From IMG/VR virus record IMGVR_UViG_2700989170_000009: a stretch of DNA of 15,828 nucleotides; one strand, given 5' to 3'. Position 1 is the stretch's first letter. Each line of letters starts with the position of its first letter. The position numbers and the translations under genes were made by a program. Source of the DNA: a virus (lineage: Duplodnaviria > Heunggongvirae > Uroviricota > Caudoviricetes). Below the pieces are notes generated by a model, which did not search any database, was not told the DNA's origin, and saw nothing but the letters and a program-made list of their open reading frames with translations. Below, piece after piece: positions 1-7,773 of this stretch.

Positions 1-1461
1 ATGAAAAAATTACTGCGTCTTTTTTTCCCGCTCTCGCTGCGGGTACGTTTTCTGTTGGCAACGGCAGCGGTAGTACTGGTGCTTTCGCTTGCCTACGGAA
101 TGGTCGCGCTGATCGGTTATAGCGTCAGTTTCGATAAAACTACGTTTCGGCTGTTACGTGGCGAGAGCAATCTGTTCTATACCCTTGCGCAGTGGGAAAA
201 CAATAAGTTGCATGTCGAGTTACCCGAAAATATCGACAAGCAAAGCCCCACCATGACGCTAATTTATGATGAGAACGGGCAGCTTTTATGGGCGCAACGT
301 GACGTGCCCTGGCTGATGAAAATGATCCAGCCTGACTGGCTGAAATCGAATGGTTTTCATGAAATTGAAGCGGATGTTAACGATACCAGCCTCTTGCTGA
401 GTGGAGATCATTCGATACAGCAACAGTTGCAGGAAGTGCGGGAAGATGATGACGACGCGGAGATGACCCACTCGGTGGCGGTAAACGTCTACCCGGCAAC
501 ATCGCGGATGCCAAAATTAACCATTGTGGTGGTGGATACCATTCCGGTGGAGCTAAAAAGTTCCTATATGGTCTGGAGCTGGTTTATCTATGTGCTCTCA
601 GCCAATCTGCTGTTAGTGATCCCGCTGCTGTGGGTCGCCGCCTGGTGGAGTTTACGCCCCATCGAAGCCCTGGCAAAAGAAGTCCGCGAACTGGAAGAAC
701 ATAACCGCGAATTGCTCAATCCAGCCACAACGCGAGAACTGACCAGTCTGGTACGAAACCTGAACCGATTGTTAAAAAGTGAACGCGAACGTTACGACAA
801 ATACCGTACGACGCTCACCGACCTGACCCATAGTCTGAAAACGCCACTGGCGGTGCTGCAAAGTACGCTGCGTTCTCTGCGTAGTGAAAAGATGAGCGTC
901 AGTGATGCTGAGCCGGTAATGCTGGAGCAAATCAGCCGCATTTCACAGCAAATTGGCTACTACCTGCATCGTGCCAGTATGCGCGGCGGGACATTGCTCA
1001 GCCGCGAGCTGCATCCGGTCGCCCCACTGCTGGACAATCTCACCTCAGCGCTGAACAAAGTGTATCAACGCAAAGGGGTCAATATCTCTCTCGATATTTC
1101 GCCAGAGATCAGCTTTGTCGGTGAGCAGAACGATTTTGTCGAGGTGATGGGCAACGTGCTGGATAATGCCTGTAAATATTGCCTCGAGTTTGTCGAAATT
1201 TCTGCAAGGCAAACCGACGAGCATCTCTATATTGTGGTCGAGGATGATGGCCCCGGTATTCCATTAAGCAAGCGAGAGGTCATTTTCGACCGTGGTCAAC
1301 GGGTTGATACTTTACGCCCTGGGCAAGGTGTAGGGCTGGCGGTAGCCCGCGAAATCACCGAGCAATATGAGGGTAAAATCGTCGCCGGAGAGAGCATGCT
1401 GGGCGGTGCGCGGATGGAGGTGATTTTTGGTCGCCAGCATTCTGCGCCGAAAGATGAATAA
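1..1461 (+). CDS. phoQ: Sensor histidine kinase PhoQ of the PhoP/PhoQ two-component system, complete (486 aa)
   Basis: Full-length ORF; translation shows two N-terminal TM segments, a periplasmic sensor with acidic patch EDDDDAE, a His-box [12 protein letters not shown], and HATPase motifs ([14 protein letters not shown]). Recognised as enterobacterial PhoQ from the sequence itself. Stop TAA at 1459-1461. Confidence 0.95.
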
Positions 1462-1577
1462 ATATGTCCTTTTACCACTACATCAAGTCATTGATTCGAT
1501 CAAACAATTTTCATTGAAAAAGTGCCAAAAATCGCAAATTGACTACACCATTAACTACACCGTTCGGTGCACTGTAT

Positions 1578-1594
1578 GAAACAACGTGGAACAA
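1578..1594 (+). promoter_or_regulatory. Two GAACAA-type hexamers (GAAACAA-cgtg-GAACAA) near the left end of the island; related to the arrays at 9185-9210 and 14507-14552
   Basis: Direct reading: gaaacaacgtggaacaa, sharing about 17 nt with 9184-9200 (tgaacaacgtggaacaa). Confidence 0.3.
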
Positions 1595-1972
1595 ATAGAC
1601 ACAAGAAATATACAGGCGGGTAATCTTTCCAGGGGGAAGCGCACCAATTCATGAGGGGCGTTAATGTCGATATGGGGATCCCCATAACGGGGCTACCGGA
1701 TTTTTTTTCCGGTTAACCTTTAATCAGGCTGGTGGGTTTTACATACCCTTGATCACCGTAATGATGATCCAGATGTGCACCTTTTCCACCAATGGCGGAA
1801 AAGCTCCAACCGTAACGATGATCGCTATGGTTGCCTCGATGGTCTGCGTGGTCATTATGACCGTTCAGCCAGTGACCTTAATCAGAATTTTTCGCTAAAA
1901 AATGACGTTGGCCACGTCATCCGGAAAGCACAAAATCACGTCGATTTTTAATGAACGGTTAAACCGTCTTTT

Positions 1973-2008
1973 TGTCACGGTGTGTCACTGGTTGTCACTC
2001 TCCGTCAC
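1973..2008 (+). promoter_or_regulatory. Four 10-bp-phased (T/C)GTCAC hexamers; candidate integrase arm-type or regulator binding array near the left junction
   Basis: TGTCAC at 1973-1978, 1983-1988, 1993-1998 and CGTCAC at 2003-2008, exactly 10 bp apart, in non-coding DNA between phoQ and the last island gene. Confidence 0.4.
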
Positions 2009-2257
2009 GATTGAGGTGGTGGTCATTCTGCCCGACCGCGCATCTTTGCGCTATCGGGAATATCAAACAGTTACCTCGCCGACTTCCTCAAATTGAGGTT
2101 TCCGAAAATATCAGAGCGGGTTAGCGATTAAGCTGACGAGTAATTAAACTGCGAAAATTTCGTAGTTTCTGAATATATTCCGGCCTGCTGGTTAACAGTC
2201 CTCAGATGTGAGGGATGTAGCCAGCGCAATTTTGCGCTTTGCTTTAATCTCAGTGAG

Positions 2258-2539
2258 TTACCGCCGTAACCGCTCCGGCTTCTTCCAGTGGTACGTGATT
2301 TTCTCCTTCTCCCGATACAGTTCAACGCGGCGATTGTAGGCCAGCATTTCCAGAACGCGGATCCGTATGTCGCGCATATCCGCATCATTAAGCTGGATAC
2401 CATCACGGCGCATCACCTCAGCAACAACACGCGCATAATTTTCGGCTGTCACGCTGTCCGGCTGCGTGGTCTGTTCGTCAGCCTGCTGGCTGATTCCAGA
2501 GACGCGGCGGATTAATCGCAGTATTTCGGCTTCTGTCAT
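2258..2539 (-). CDS. Hypothetical protein (93 aa), last gene of the packaging operon, immediately downstream of TerL
   Basis: ATG at 2539-2537 preceded by GAGGT 7 nt upstream; starts 13 nt after the TerL stop; hydrophilic, Arg-rich C-terminus. No family recognised. Confidence 0.5.
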   Translation of the reverse strand: MTEAEILRLIRRVSGISQQADEQTTQPDSVTAENYARVVAEVMRRDGIQLNDADMRDIRIRVLEMLAYNRRVELYREKEKITYHWKKPERLRR

Positions 2540-2552
2540 GCTGCTGACCTCA

Positions 2553-4214
2553 TTACACCCCGCTAAATTCTTCCAGTTTCTGGCGGTGGCTGTCGCTTAT
2601 ATCAAAAGCAAAATCCTCATGCTCTGCCTGGAATGTACCAAACGCCATCAGCGCCGCTACGCTCGGGTCTATCTTGTTCGGTGATTTTTTCTTGTTCGGC
2701 TTGATATTGGCGTTCGCGTCACTCTGCATCACGACGTTACTCATCGACCAGGACAACACCGGATCGCCACGATGCACAATCACCCTGCGGTTAACAAAAA
2801 CTTCGAACGATTTCGCCGCCGGACTGAATCTGAGGTAGGTTTGCGGGAACGGCTCCACCTCAAAACCAGCCCCCTGTAATTGCGTCCTGAGATGCGTGGC
2901 GTTCCACGTATCAAAGCCCACCAGCCTGATATTAAATTTCTCCGCATCCTGCATGATGTCATCTCTGATCCGGTCGTAATCAATGCAGTCACCTGGCGTT
3001 GTGCGTATCCAGCCCGCTTTAGCCCACTGGCGATAGACAGCGCGGTTTTTATTGGCGGGGTTCTGTAGCTGGAACTCCGGCAGATAATGACGGGAAATCA
3101 GCATAATGGTTTTACCGACCGGAAAGGCATAGCATACGCTGGAAATATCGCTGGTTGATGATAAGTCCAGCCCCGCGTAACACTCCTGACCGTGTAAATC
3201 TTCCTCCGTGAACGTTCCGGCACACTCAGCCCATGCACCATTACCCATCCACGGGGTAGTCCCCTGACACCAGATATTAAATCGCTTTGTCATCATCTCC
3301 ACCCACTGCGACGGAATACCCCGCGCTTTCTGGATGGTTGAGGCCAGTTTTTCACGATCCACGGAAACATCAATATTAGGGTTCGCCTTTATCCACATCG
3401 CCGGATCATCAACCTCGTTTTCGTCGTCCAGTTCGTAAATCAGTACAAAAATTGAATCGTTAACCTCTTCGCCGTCCAGGATCTGGCAGCAATAATCATA
3501 GTGCTGTTTACAGGCTGAAACGACGTTACTGCCCGATGTGGTAATGGCAAATAACAGCCCTTCGGGACGTGCGCCCATCCCCAGCTCAAGCGCGGAATAA
3601 ACGCCGTTATCGGGGTGTAGGTGGTATTCGTCCACGATGGAAAGACTGGGGTTTGTCCCCTCGATGGTTGCCGCTTTTGCTGCCAGCGGCTTTAACAGGC
3701 TGTTGCTTTTCGGGTGTATCACCTTATGCGCCTGAATATTCACCCGCCTGCGTAACGGTCGGGATAAAAGGCACATCTGACGCGCATTATCAAACACGAT
3801 CCGCGCCTGGTCACGGCTCACCGCTGCGGTGTAGATATCCTGCTGACCGTTCTCCATAATCAGAAACCAGTTAGCCAGAATCGCGGCGGTCGTGGATTTC
3901 GCATTTTTGCGCGGCACTTCGATAAAGGCGCTCGTGTATTTGCGCCGTCCGGTGGCCTTAACCTTAAAGCCGAGGATGCACGCAAAGGCGAACTGCTGCC
4001 ACGGCTCCAGCTCAATGGGTCTGCCACGCATCGGTCCTTTTACGTGCGGGCACACCCTGGAAAAGGCAATAAACCGCTCCACAACCTCACGATCGAACGT
4101 GTAAAGGGGGCTTTTAAGGTCCGAAAAGTACCGTTTAACAGCCTGTTTTAACCGTTTACAGGCCGGAATTTTGCCCGTTTTTACGTCTTCTGCGTACTTA
4201 TTCCAGGCGGTCAA
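2553..4214 (-). CDS. Terminase large subunit (TerL), HK97-like Terminase_1 type
   Basis: 553 aa; Walker A-like PRKNAKST near the N-terminus, nuclease-domain acidic residues towards the C-terminus; typical size and position after TerS. Only in-frame start is TTG at 4214-4212, with AAGAGGA 5 nt upstream; overlaps TerS by 17 nt. Confidence 0.85.
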   Translation of the reverse strand: MTAWNKYAEDVKTGKIPACKRLKQAVKRYFSDLKSPLYTFDREVVERFIAFSRVCPHVKGPMRGRPIELEPWQQFAFACILGFKVKATGRRKYTSAFIEVPRKNAKSTTAAILANWFLIMENGQQDIYTAAVSRDQARIVFDNARQMCLLSRPLRRRVNIQAHKVIHPKSNSLLKPLAAKAATIEGTNPSLSIVDEYHLHPDNGVYSALELGMGARPEGLLFAITTSGSNVVSACKQHYDYCCQILDGEEVNDSIFVLIYELDDENEVDDPAMWIKANPNIDVSVDREKLASTIQKARGIPSQWVEMMTKRFNIWCQGTTPWMGNGAWAECAGTFTEEDLHGQECYAGLDLSSTSDISSVCYAFPVGKTIMLISRHYLPEFQLQNPANKNRAVYRQWAKAGWIRTTPGDCIDYDRIRDDIMQDAEKFNIRLVGFDTWNATHLRTQLQGAGFEVEPFPQTYLRFSPAAKSFEVFVNRRVIVHRGDPVLSWSMSNVVMQSDANANIKPNKKKSPNKIDPSVAALMAFGTFQAEHEDFAFDISDSHRQKLEEFSGV

Positions 4215-4509
4215 GCTCGTCCTCTTCTTCTGTTTCCGGTGGATTTTTACGGCGGCTTATCGGGTCAAAACCGAGCAAGGAGGCCATTTTTATCATCACT
4301 CTTTCAGCGTCGGATTTTGCGCTTAATGCGGGGTTTCTGCTCTCGCCGCCCTGACTGTTAACAATGCTGAACCCGCGCGCCGCAAGGTCTGCAACGGCTT
4401 TCCGGTAAATGGAGTAGTTGACGCAATACAGTTCCAGATTGCTCCAGTCGGCGGGGGTCAGGTCTCCCCGTTCCGCAAGCTGCCGCGATTTTTCCCGCCA
4501 CTGCTTCAC
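4198..4509 (-). CDS. Terminase small subunit (TerS), P27-family-like
   Basis: 103 aa with acidic C-terminal tail (ETEEEDELDRLE) and composition typical of P27-type small terminases; sits directly upstream of and overlapping TerL. Start is GTG at 4509-4507. Confidence 0.65.
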   Translation of the reverse strand: MKQWREKSRQLAERGDLTPADWSNLELYCVNYSIYRKAVADLAARGFSIVNSQGGESRNPALSAKSDAERVMIKMASLLGFDPISRRKNPPETEEEDELDRLE

Positions 4510-4552
4510 GGCGATATCATCCAGGTAGGCGGGGGCGGGGTTGTCCTGGAAA

Positions 4553-4595
4553 NNNNNNNNNNNNNNNNNNNNNNNNNNNNNNNNNNNNNNNNNNN
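4553..4595. other. Assembly gap (43 N)
   Basis: Run of N flanked by G-rich ggcgggggcgggg-ttgtcctggaaa on the left and gtttgtcctgaaaa-cgccccccaccccg on the right. Confidence 0.95.
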
Positions 4596-4636
4596 GTTTG
4601 TCCTGAAAACGCCCCCCACCCCGTCATACAGCCTCA

Positions 4637-4810
4637 TCAGCGATTGCGGAAACATTCCATAACCTCGCGGTCACGGTCGGTTAATCGCTTCGCTGTGATG
4701 CGTTCTGCGCGTCCTGACGCTTTATCTTTATGCCCTGTTTCCTGTGTCTTCCATGCGTCACGCTGCCTTATAAGTCCACGGATAAGGCGGTTTTGTTCCC
4801 GCTCATTCAT
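4637..4810 (-). CDS. Possible small basic protein (about 57 aa) between HNH and TerS
   Basis: ATG at 4810-4808 (alternative 4819-4817) overlapping the last HNH codons; Lys/Arg-rich product MNEREQNRLIRGLIRQRDAW...; no clear Shine-Dalgarno. Weak call. Confidence 0.25.
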   Translation of the reverse strand: MNEREQNRLIRGLIRQRDAWKTQETGHKDKASGRAERITAKRLTDRDREVMECFRNR

Positions 4811-5243
4811 CAGCGTCATACATCCAGTTATTGCGGTTAGCAGCCCGTTCTTCCTCTTCACGAAATCCACCTGCGGCACGCTTGCTTTTTGTTGCCGGAT
4901 CAAGCCATTTCGTTTTCTGGTTATGACACGCCTGGCACAATGGTTGATGGTTCCATTCGGGCCAGAAGAGAACATCATCACCGCCATTAATCGGGATAAT
5001 GTGATCCACCACCACGGCGGGCGTATATATCCCCTTCTCAAGGCATCGCACGCATAACGGGTTTTTACTCAGATACATGGCGCGGTATTTGTCCCACTGT
5101 CTGGAATATCCACGCGCGCGGCGGTGTCCTCGTCTGGCATCCTCTGCACGCCATGCCGCCCGCCTGTGCTCCTCACACTTGCCGGATTTAACGCGCCTGT
5201 TACAGCCTGGTTCTGTGCATCGTCTTAATGGTTGCCACGGCAT
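4803..5243 (-). CDS. HNH endonuclease (phage packaging-associated)
   Basis: 146 aa with paired Cys (CxxC twice) and a DH...N...H core (VVVDHIIPINGGD ... CQACHNQK), as in HNH nucleases next to cos-type terminases. ATG at 5243-5241 overlaps the upstream stop (TGATG). Confidence 0.85.
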   Translation of the reverse strand: MPWQPLRRCTEPGCNRRVKSGKCEEHRRAAWRAEDARRGHRRARGYSRQWDKYRAMYLSKNPLCVRCLEKGIYTPAVVVDHIIPINGGDDVLFWPEWNHQPLCQACHNQKTKWLDPATKSKRAAGGFREEEERAANRNNWMYDADE

Positions 5244-5606: not shown

Positions 5607-5723
5607 NNNNNNNNNNNNNNNNNNNNNNNNNNNNNNNNNNNNNNNNNNNNNNNNNNNNNNNNNNNNNNNNNNNNNNNNNNNNNNNNNNNNNNNNNNNNNN
5701 NNNNNNNNNNNNNNNNNNNNNNN
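5607..5723. other. Assembly gap (117 N) interrupting the head-closure gene
   Basis: Run of N; the reading frame across it is arbitrary. Confidence 0.95.
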
Positions 5724-5933: not shown

Positions 5934-7141
5934 TCCGGTTTTTCTCCCTCGCTGATTTTTACTTCCTGTTTCCATGCCTGGCTGAACTCATCACCACCAT
6001 CACGCGGTGACAGCCCTTCACGTTCGCGGGCTTCGTTCGGACACATAACGTCGGATTTTATGCCGCGCTCATAGGTGGCAAAGCGTTCGCCAGGTGTGGC
6101 CCGTAACAGGTCCGCGCTGTCAAACTCCACCTGATACCGGATACCAGGTACAGGCGAGGCCACCAGCAAGGCGTTTTTTATCTGCTGCTCAAAGTTCGCC
6201 AGCCACGGGCGCATCGTCATGGTGAGAAATGCGCGGCTTGCCTCGCTGAAGTTGCTGTAGGTGCTGTTGCTGTATTCCTGCAAAAAAATCGGCGAGACGT
6301 TGAACATTCGGGCGATGTCTTCAATGGTGAAGCGACGGGAGGCCAGCCATTCGGCATCCTGATTACTCATGCCCAGCTGCTGATAGCTCATCCCCCCTTC
6401 AAGGATGGGCGTTTTTCCGGCGTTTCTGGCCCCTTTGTAGCGTTCCAGTGCGGCTAATGCCTGTTTGCCCTTCACGCCGTCCAGCCATTCGCCTGACGTG
6501 ATAACCCCTGCCGCCATCATGCCATCACGCATCACGCTCGCGCCGTGGCGTTGTTGGGCCAGCCCAAGCCCCAGCGATTCGCGGCAGATGGTTACAGGTG
6601 AGCGCCCCATAAAACCGTCATCCGTGGAGTAACGAAGGTGGAGAACCTCCCACGGTAAATAGTTGCGGATGTTTCCGGTGTAGGCGTCAGTGATGCAGTA
6701 GCGCCAGTTATGATCACCTGTCTGCTCCACGTTCACCGACTGCGGCGGGTAAGGATGTAAAGCCGCCGGAAAACCATCACGCCCCCACTGAATAACCGCA
6801 TAAGCATTACCACTTAACAGGCAGTAGCGGATCATCATTCGCTTAAACTGGTAGGGTGTCTGCCACGCGTTCGGGCGCTCGTTGAGGATGTGATCGACCG
6901 GATGAGAATCAAGCCATTCGCGGGCCTCCTTCCCCTTCTCATTGCGTACCAGGTACAGGTAACACGGCATGGTAGCCACCGCGTCAGAGATGACCGTGAC
7001 GGCGTTCATGACGGCGGGGAGTGATTCCGCTGTCCCAGATGATACGTACTCACCCGCCCCCGTGTTCGATGTGCCGGCCAGCGCCATAAATTCATCAAGC
7101 GTCATGCTGCGCTGCTCTTTTTTTCGTCTGAAAGGCCACAT
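5930..7141 (-). CDS. Portal protein, HK97 family
   Basis: 403 aa, typical size and composition for HK97-type portals, acidic C-terminus; placed between protease and connector genes; GGGGG Shine-Dalgarno 6 nt upstream of ATG 7141-7139. Confidence 0.85.
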   Translation of the reverse strand: MWPFRRKKEQRSMTLDEFMALAGTSNTGAGEYVSSGTAESLPAVMNAVTVISDAVATMPCYLYLVRNEKGKEAREWLDSHPVDHILNERPNAWQTPYQFKRMMIRYCLLSGNAYAVIQWGRDGFPAALHPYPPQSVNVEQTGDHNWRYCITDAYTGNIRNYLPWEVLHLRYSTDDGFMGRSPVTICRESLGLGLAQQRHGASVMRDGMMAAGVITSGEWLDGVKGKQALAALERYKGARNAGKTPILEGGMSYQQLGMSNQDAEWLASRRFTIEDIARMFNVSPIFLQEYSNSTYSNFSEASRAFLTMTMRPWLANFEQQIKNALLVASPVPGIRYQVEFDSADLLRATPGERFATYERGIKSDVMCPNEAREREGLSPRDGGDEFSQAWKQEVKISEGEKPE

Positions 7142-7209: not shown

Positions 7210-7773
7210 TCATACAGGGAACGGCGGGGCCGCCNNNNNNNNNNNNNNNNNNNNNNNNNNNNNNNNNNNNNNNNNNNNNNNNNNNNNNNNNNNNNNNNNN
7301 NNNNNNNNNNNNNNNNNNNNNNNNGTAACGGTAATTTCGTACAGTTCCGCCACCAGCACGGTGCGCACGCATGGATCTGTTGTGGTATCCCATACATCCT
7401 TACGGGAGCGAAAGCCAAAGCTCATCCCCGAGATGTCCCCACGCTTAACCAGTTCGATAACGTCGCGCCCTGTACTGGTATCCGGTGGGGTCAGTTCAAA
7501 GCGTAACCCTGTTTCGTCCTCTTCCAGTTTCAGCGTGCCGGAACGGGTGCGCCCCAGTAACATGCTGTGGTCATGCTCATACAGGCCGCGAACGTCATTA
7601 CCCGCCGCAAGCCATTCAGTAAACGCCCCCCGCTGGAATTTTTCGTAAAACTCACCCCATAACAGTTCTGAAAGCTTATCCCAGCGAACAACGTAGCCCG
7701 TCAGCGTACCGGCTCCGCTGGTGGTGATTTCCGATGACCGGATTTCCATACTCTTCATAATTTTTTCACCCAT
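7210..7773 (-). CDS. Prohead maturation protease, HK97 family (S78 peptidase); C-terminal part spans a gap
   Basis: Translation contains the catalytic His (LYEHDH) and Ser (GMSFGF) motifs of HK97 prohead protease. ATG at 7773-7771. Residues after 7325 are uncertain because of the 90-N gap at 7235-7324. Confidence 0.75.
   Translation of the reverse strand: MGEKIMKSMEIRSSEITTSGAGTLTGYVVRWDKLSELLWGEFYEKFQRGAFTEWLAAGNDVRGLYEHDHSMLLGRTRSGTLKLEEDETGLRFELTPPDTSTGRDVIELVKRGDISGMSFGFRSRKDVWDTTTDPCVRTVLVAELYEITVXXXXXXXXXXXXXXXXXXXXXXXXXXXXXXXAAPPFPV
7235..7324. other. Assembly gap (90 N)
   Basis: Run of N with GC-rich left flank (acggcggggccgcc). Confidence 0.95.

Follow-up and report, generated by a model that had tools for sequence, protein, structure and literature searches.

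In phage HK97 the HNH endonuclease gene is the last of the genome and the gene for the small terminase (TerS) is the first, and therefore the genome ends fall between HNH and TerS. The region studied here, within a 15,828-nt stretch of viral DNA (the window), has this same HNH-TerS location, and Clostridium phage PhiS63 has the HNH/TerS layout of HK97. HK97 DNA has ends with 10-nt 3' overhangs (PMC9410871), and the site of its TerS lies at +15 to +29, with C:G at position 21 and an A-tract at 24–29 (PMC11331095). The HK97 record ends ...GGGCAGGGGGGGGGATCAAATCTTCAAAACCTTTGCCCCAAATGACCGCCGCCAAA and starts GTTTGAATTTAACGCTAACCCGATTTTTTTAG..., with the TerS ATG at base 50, and the published TerS site fits the first bases of this record.

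Capsid-forming PICIs (cf-PICIs) package with their own HNH, TerS and large terminase (TerL), and their DNA has cohesive ends (bioRxiv 10.1101/2022.09.08.507074; bioRxiv 10.1101/2025.02.11.637232). We found neither a cf-PICI cos sequence nor mapped physical ends in the cf-PICI literature examined, which included these two reports. By definition, cf-PICIs are induced by a helper phage and move in small capsids of their own fitted with helper tails; for the window copy, loss of this function is predicted. The prototype EcCIEDL933, and likewise KpCIDSM30104, carries int, replication genes, the capsid, protease, portal and connector genes and hnh-terS-terL in the order seen in the window.

The well-known cos sites of lambda and P2 were also compared with this region. 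Lambda cos is ordered cosQ-cosN-cosB, with an upstream termination element, a nicking site and a downstream element by the TerS gene to which TerS binds. This three-part logic is like that of the cf-PICI region described below, but as an analogy only; lambda has 12-nt 5' overhangs, no HNH protein and no sequence relationship to the island region. The initial annotation of the window had proposed a candidate cos region at 4510–4636 and had likened a G-rich 13-mer there to the start of a P2-type cohesive end. The P2 string given there was correct, and we verified the 19-nt 5' cohesive end of P2 cosL as GGCGAGGCGGGGAAAGCAC, but the resemblance is spurious and amounts to a G-rich look. The 13-mer differs from it and appears to be a deletion junction with two miscalls, P2 cos adjoins portal gene Q rather than lying between HNH and TerS, and the module in the window (HNH, Terminase_4, TerL) is HK97-like. 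A P2-type identity was rejected for the different 13-mer and the HK97-like neighboring genes.

By its sequence, the element in the window is recognizable as an EcCIEDL933-like cf-PICI beside phoQ. The island lies between phoQ and roxA and every one of its genes is on the minus strand of the window. As in cf-PICIs (10–18 kb), an integrase and primase module is found in a chromosomally integrated island and hnh-terS-terL stand at the operon end (by Pfam, HNH and TerL in the window and Terminase_4 on the intact TerS of a relative, locus L001). Beyond HNH the order is head-tail connector, head closure, portal, protease, capsid, primase and integrase. Capsid, protease, portal and head-tail connectors were all located in the window by tblastn against an annotated relative (L002), and no tail or lysis genes are annotated by RefSeq in L002 or in near-identical copies. 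RefSeq-annotated relatives are 92–98% identical, and mapping them onto the window gene by gene gave the same gene order. The HNH-TerS stretch is carried by more than 500 complete E. coli genomes, and the TerS protein family also has copies in O157:H7 genomes. The features of the window that matter here are as follows, where L185 is a complete Shigella flexneri genome used as reference:

1–1461, plus strand: phoQ
2553–4214, minus strand: large terminase TerL, intact (Pfam TerL_ATPase and TerL_nuclease; full-length match to the TerL of a relative)
4198–4527, minus strand: remnant of the small terminase TerS (P27 family), codons 10–118 and stop (tblastn; Pfam of the intact homologue)
4528–4534, no strand: GGCGGGG, sole remaining copy of the 7-nt direct repeat at the deletion junction (alignment of L001 with L185)
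4535–4552, no strand: error-laden left contig end, true sequence TCGGGTTTGTCCTGAAAA, the last 14 nt repeating 4596–4609 (L185 comparison)
4553–4595, no strand: run of 43 N, read as a scaffolding artefact (L185 coordinates 3089/3102; gap arithmetic)
4596–4599, minus strand: first 4 nt of the variable spacer, AAAC on the coding strand (comparison with relatives)
4600–4622, minus strand: Block 1, an upstream cosQ-like candidate, GGGGTGGGGGGCGTTTTCAGGAC on the coding strand (MAFFT conservation; exact matches across genera)
4637–4819, minus strand: 60-aa ORF, phrog_3173 (PHROG match, E 7.5e-37; 100% identical to the L002 copy; annotated in relatives)
4803–5243, minus strand: HNH endonuclease of the packaging module, intact (PF01844; phrog_144)
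10314–12062, minus strand: primase (full-length map onto an annotated relative)
14599–15828, minus strand: integrase (full-length map onto an annotated relative)

The product of the phrog_3173 ORF is a basic 60-aa protein. The ORF always lies between HNH and the cos region and may encode an accessory packaging factor. Elsewhere, at 9019–9750, the PerC-family regulator and the SSB of relatives were matched only in fragments (SSB residues 1–25, PerC residues 54–76), and this region is replaced or degraded relative to the relatives.

Taken as a whole, it is very probable that the region is the cos region of an EcCIEDL933-type cf-PICI, that this cos is broken by a 98-nt deletion and that the N-run, the direct repeat and the G-rich 13-mer are scaffold artefacts. 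The initial annotation thus chose the right place for this family, but the elements that it named were wrong and the cos is broken in this copy. The placement of cos between HNH and TerS is borne out by the layout of HK97 and PhiS63, by the HNH-TerS-TerL module and by particle-derived records that break in the intergenic region.

The strings on which the candidate had been built are all present: ggcgggggcgggg at 4528–4540, ttgtcctggaaa at 4541–4552, 43 N at 4553–4595, gtttgtcctgaaaa at 4596–4609 and cgccccccaccccg at 4610–4623. A repeat search of the window returned the direct repeat (4541–4552 and 4598–4609, 92% identity) and reported no inverted repeat between the G-rich and C-rich blocks. 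As a reference across the gap we used the complete genome of S. flexneri SFBU1023 (CP182556.1, L185), which was obtained with the Block 1 pattern from GTDB species representatives. Its identity to the window is 99.9–100% over the three blocks aligned between 4596 and 7814 and 98%, with many small gaps, over the left window block (3–4552). At the junction L185 reads ...ATCATCCAGGTAGGCGGGGTCGGGTTTGTCCTGAAAACGCC..., the left window block ends at its base 3089 and the right one starts at 3102, and the contig ends overlap by 14 nt. By this comparison, the 43-N run appears to be a scaffold gap laid over a 14-nt contig overlap, with no hidden sequence, and the direct repeat appears to be that overlap read twice; the repeat unit is single-copy in intact relatives. 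The gap had been thought to hide the center of the site, which the overlap contradicts, and the direct repeat said to flank it is present as two strings but would be one sequence.

The arithmetic of the other gaps agrees with an overlap. The window has three N-runs (4553–4595, 5607–5723 and 7235–7324), and at the second and third the window spacing exceeds the real spacing by exactly 58 nt (117 vs 59 and 96 vs 38, in three independent genomes). With the same excess, the first gap comes to 43 minus 58, or about –15, an overlap. The shared 58-nt excess suggests a systematic scaffolder offset of a k-mer type. That the N-run masks sequence of equal length was ruled out by the differing spacings relative to relatives and by the constant +58 excess at two gaps.

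The left flanks of all three N-runs have garbled, G-biased bases right after GGC-type motifs. Published work names GGC motifs, along with inverted repeats, as causes of sequence-specific errors in Illumina data and of gaps in assemblies (PMC3141275). Positions 4528–4552 match the true L185 sequence, GGCGGGGTCGGGTTTGTCCTGAAAA, ungapped at 22 of 25 positions. The three mismatches (4535, 4540 and 4549) are all miscalls to G, with the first two inside the G-rich 13-mer and the last inside the left repeat copy. Bases 4537–4552 were absent from 5,426 complete E. coli genomes, where all 240 matches end at base 4536, as well as from 82 fetched related loci and from every GTDB species representative; the raw junction goes unmatched in the GTDB representatives because the string has miscalls. 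A low-quality scaffold at a G-rich junction would produce the N-run, the direct repeat and the G-rich 13-mer alike. As a general caution, a short N-run in a scaffold can lie over an overlap of contigs, with flanks that pass for repeats.

To describe the intact region, we used about 170 loci from E. coli genomes, IMG/VR, metagenomes and GTDB, which gave 66–74 distinct variants depending on the stretch compared. The intact intergenic space, from the small ORF after HNH to the TerS gene, is 123 nt long. On the coding strand (the minus strand of the window) it is ordered Block 1, spacer, Block 2, and then the TerS ribosome site and ATG. Block 1 in intact islands reads GGGGTGGGGGNNGTTTTCAGGAC. It is nearly invariant in a MAFFT alignment of 59 distinct sequences (with up to two mismatches allowed in the collection) and is found exactly in Escherichia, Shigella, Klebsiella, Kluyvera, Pluralibacter, Erwinia and Pectobacterium; window positions 4596–4623 are nearly invariant in about 170 related loci. 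The spacer is hypervariable, yet in 72 of the 74 distinct variants exactly 33 nt separate the end of Block 1 from CAAATTTTT. Block 2 has the form ACC..CGCC(T/C)CCTCAAATTTTT..GCACGG..ATTTTTT(T)GAAAA, in which the C-rich block ends in AAATTTTT and is followed by a T-tract. Enterobacterales copies have TTTTCAGGAC after the G-run. Conservation is 1.67 bits per position in Block 2, compared with 1.29 in the spacer and 1.45 in the neighboring coding sequence.

The C-rich block had been described as the complementary partner of the G-rich one. The string is present at 4610–4623 and, like the rest of the right-hand part of the candidate (4596–4623), is conserved, but the inverted pairing is not. We rejected a hairpin or inverted repeat of the G-run and the C-rich block; the partner differs between variants, complementarity of 8/9 is reached by only 11 of the 49 distinct variants, and the DNA folds no better than shuffled sequence (z 0.3, 0.1 and –1.6). 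The intact region has no promoter-like or terminator-like site on its coding strand and no matching Rfam family. As stand-ins for physical ends, the contig ends in metagenomes and IMG/VR showed no enriched position, and many locus ends are not contig ends. Because the cf-PICI papers examined give no cos sequence, the block architecture is a reading of our own from sequence comparison. It may be regarded as a new but unsurprising description, as the kind itself (a cf-PICI with an HK97-type, HNH-dependent cos) is known.

We compared this architecture with HK97. The window TerL is homologous to HK97 gp2 (27% identity over 506 aa, E 2e-47) and the window HNH to the core of HK97 gp74 (38% identity, E 4e-15). 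By contrast, HK97 gp1, its TerS, has no Pfam match whereas the island TerS is Terminase_4, a different family, and TerS may therefore recognize DNA differently in the two. The island also has the additional 60-aa ORF between HNH and cos. HK97 and the intact relatives of the window island have one order in common, in which a G-run is followed after about 42 nt by a C-rich cut region, after about 23 nt more by a T-tract, and then by the TerS ATG. HK97, the E. coli cf-PICI and Pasteurella phage Pmp8 all have 65 nt from G-run to T-tract, and the distance from G-run to cut is alike in HK97 and Pmp8.

Intergenic similarities were each scored against dinucleotide shuffles, and by alignment scored in this way the direct similarity of HK97 and cf-PICI intergenic regions was not significant. 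Two phages are intermediate. Acinetobacter phage AbIPP1, which has a P27-family TerS (38% identical), is significantly similar to the HK97 cut region (z 5.1, with 4 of 1000 shuffles as good) and also to a Klebsiella-type copy from IMG/VR (L087; z 4.7, 1 of 1000 shuffles as good). Pmp8 (OR544139.1; L192 760–880) is cf-PICI-like and has the same cos architecture, with no small ORF between HNH and cos. Its similarity to the Klebsiella and E. coli cf-PICI intergenic region has a z of about 16, and that to HK97 is marginal (77 of 2000 shuffles as good), the latter alignment being almost ungapped from ACCGCC through the T-tract. The proposed link between the HK97 and cf-PICI cos thus rests on the intermediates AbIPP1 and Pmp8 and on spacing. 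The architecture as a whole occurs in all seven genera named above for Block 1 and also in Pasteurella, and it is in register with the HK97 site, which is mapped. AbIPP1 has a 72-aa ORF where the island has the phrog_3173 ORF (L110 342–560). The ends of the AbIPP1 record were considered as physical ends and found uninformative, since the record is rotated to start at TerS.

Two records derived from phage particles also bear on the position of the ends. LR881103.1 ("vB_KppS-Ant", L083) is a linear record of 16,548 bp, sequenced by Nextera XT from particles that K. pneumoniae DSM 30104 had released. With its int, primase, capsid, portal, HNH, TerS and TerL, vB_KppS-Ant is the cf-PICI of K. pneumoniae DSM 30104 / ATCC 13883. 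The record ends ...GGGGTGGGGGAGGTTTTCAGGAC and starts 22 nt before the TerS ATG, where the ATCC 13883 host chromosome and other integrated copies have 69 more nt, which hold Block 2 and are centered on CCGCCCCCTC|AAATTTT. In transposase libraries the final tens of bases of a linear molecule drop out, and this would account for sequence missing from LR881103 on either side of a physical end. In PQ569648.1 (L085), the cf-PICI segment runs from about 90644 to 106503, beginning with the TerS ATG and stopping 17 nt short of Block 1. The breaks in LR881103 and PQ569648 fit ends inside the intergenic region, without mapping them.

PQ569648.1 was deposited as the 106.5-kb "Klebsiella phage P12620-1" with the cf-PICI segment appended at its right end, and probably a phage and a satellite packaged along with it were assembled into one chimera; as a chimeric record it was ruled out as an integrated reference. 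"Escherichia phage vB_KppS-Ant" was published as a filamentous ssDNA phage, and the large ORF after its TerL (2036–4333) is annotated as a tape measure protein.

From these comparisons we propose the most likely working model for intact islands. TerL and HNH would nick within or beside the C-rich part of Block 2, near ...CGCCT(C)|(C)CTCAAATTTTT, and leave short 3' cohesive ends. In the register of HK97, the top-strand cut would fall at about ...CACCGAACGCCT(C)|(C)CTCAAATTTTT in E. coli and at about ...CACCACCCGCCC(C)|(C)CTCAAATTTTTT in Klebsiella. If sequence (the AAA anchor) is used in place of spacing, the position moves by up to 7 nt. TerS would bind the element made of GC and then a T-tract, about 15–30 nt downstream of the cut, for which the candidate sequence is GCACGGNNATTTTTT. 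The G-run of Block 1, about 43 nt upstream of the cut, may act at termination in the manner of lambda cosQ. It is by register with HK97 that we infer the exact cut position and the roles of the blocks; the loss of mobility in the window copy is a prediction. If confirmed, the architecture would define the sequence that makes cf-PICI packaging exclusive, and a cos map would help to engineer or track cf-PICIs, which spread between species.

In the window this region is deleted in part. When intact L001 is aligned with L185 there is one clean 98-nt gap between GGCGGGG repeats, the other 93 nt being identical, and the comparison set for this deletion was several hundred intact islands. The junction string is CCCGACCCCGCCTACCTGG. 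Lost with the deletion are the 3' portion of the spacer and the non-coding block of highest conservation, and TerS is left without its ribosome site, its ATG and codons 1–9. On the coding strand this fuses ...GGGGTGGGGGGCGTTTTCAGGACAAACCCGACCCCGCC directly onto TACCTGGATGAT, which is TerS codon 10. The G-rich 13-mer does stand at 4528–4540 as initially annotated, but rather than a cos element it appears to be TerS codons 7–9 fused to spacer, with two miscalls within. The intact TerS of L001 has 118 aa and a Terminase_4 match (E 1e-23); the window remnant is 99% identical to it with only residues 7–118 matching (tblastn), and the first in-frame start left is a GTG at 4509.

For the source strain we infer the deletion from the near-identical S. 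flexneri genome and gap arithmetic. Across 4500–4650 this strain would read GGTAGGCGGGGTCGGGTTTG, and a PCR product would contain ...CCAGGTAGGCGGGGTCGGGTTTGTCCTGAAAACGCC... and be 98 bp shorter than that from an intact island. None of the 5,426 complete E. coli genomes has the corrected deletion junction, nor does IMG/VR, and its absence from these E. coli genomes indicates that the intact state is the norm.

Block 1 is the only conserved cos element left in the window; the Shigella allele keeps it together with 15 nt of spacer. The nicking region and the downstream TerS-binding A-tract element are missing from the window, as both lie inside the 98-nt deletion, and so are the counterparts of the HK97 cut region and TerS site. 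The likeliest cosN element has, judging from the alignment, most likely been deleted. Mechanistically, a 98-nt deletion between the GGCGGGG repeats would have removed Block 2 and the T-tract along with the TerS ribosome site, start and codons 1–9. With Block 2 and the TerS start lost, the island should be unable to cut or package its own DNA, and it is probably immobile.

The major capsid gene also has an in-frame TGA at 8143–8145 (minus strand), where 57 other loci have TGG (Trp). Because of its mid-contig position, this is probably a real nonsense mutation. The window island looks like a decaying copy with the capsid TGA as a second lesion. The window copy differs from EcCIEDL933 and KpCIDSM30104 by the 98-nt deletion and the capsid nonsense codon and for these reasons is probably immobile. 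The window itself is of little import, as a decaying satellite in a draft assembly whose striking features appear to be artefacts.

Other explanations were weighed against this reading. We regard it as extremely improbable that the cos is intact, with its center hidden by a real 43-nt gap between functional inverted G- and C-rich elements and a direct repeat. The quoted strings exist, the region is where a cos is expected and type A intact relatives have a 9/10 inverted pair (CGGGGTCGGG / CCCCACCCCG), but a near-identical complete genome shows a 14-nt contig overlap and the length of the N-run fits an overlap after the +58 correction. Moreover, none of the collections searched has the left-flank string, every relative carries the repeat unit once, and the inverted pairing is not conserved and folding equals that of shuffles. 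It is also unlikely that the source genome has an intact 123-nt region, the left contig end being chimeric via a G-rich 9-mer and the deletion being confined to the Shigella reference. An intact locus would need an N-run of about 140–160, not 43, under the excess seen at the other gaps, and the tail is the post-deletion sequence at 22 of 25 positions, ungapped. The flanking blocks are 99.9–100% identical to those of the deletion-bearing S. flexneri genome. In favor of this reading are the unreliable left flanks of all three gaps, the absence of the deletion junction from 5,426 E. coli genomes and the fact that, with a T-to-G miscall, TerS and spacer share GGCGGGGGC, which could mislead a gap filler.

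A different possibility, which we consider very unlikely, is that the conserved blocks are signals for terS-terL expression (promoter, operator or leader) and that cos is elsewhere in the island. Block 2 is 30–65 nt upstream of the TerS start with an A/T-rich 3' side, and the literature examined has no mapped cf-PICI end. Against this, the coding strand has no promoter or terminator, there is no Rfam family or significant fold, two particle-derived assemblies break exactly here and the mapped HK97 cos has matching architecture and spacing. One role need not exclude the other, and Block 2 could also serve terS expression. With regard to the origin of the deletion, we hold it to be quite unlikely that it is, rather than the product of random slippage, the repair scar of a cut by the island's HNH/TerL at the integrated cos, the survivors having lost cosN and the TerS start by microhomology joining at GGCGGGG. 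If this were true, the cos sites of chromosomal satellites would be self-inflicted fragile sites, and cos-spanning deletions would be a recurrent route of immobilization.

A further sequence was noted in the intact islands. In L001, Block 2 and TerS codons 4–8 both contain CACCGAA(C/A)GCC(T/C)CC (coding strand), the two copies (6380–6393 and 6458–6471) being 78 nt apart. This repeat could be due to chance or be a second contact for TerS or TerL; agreement is weaker in the Klebsiella copies.
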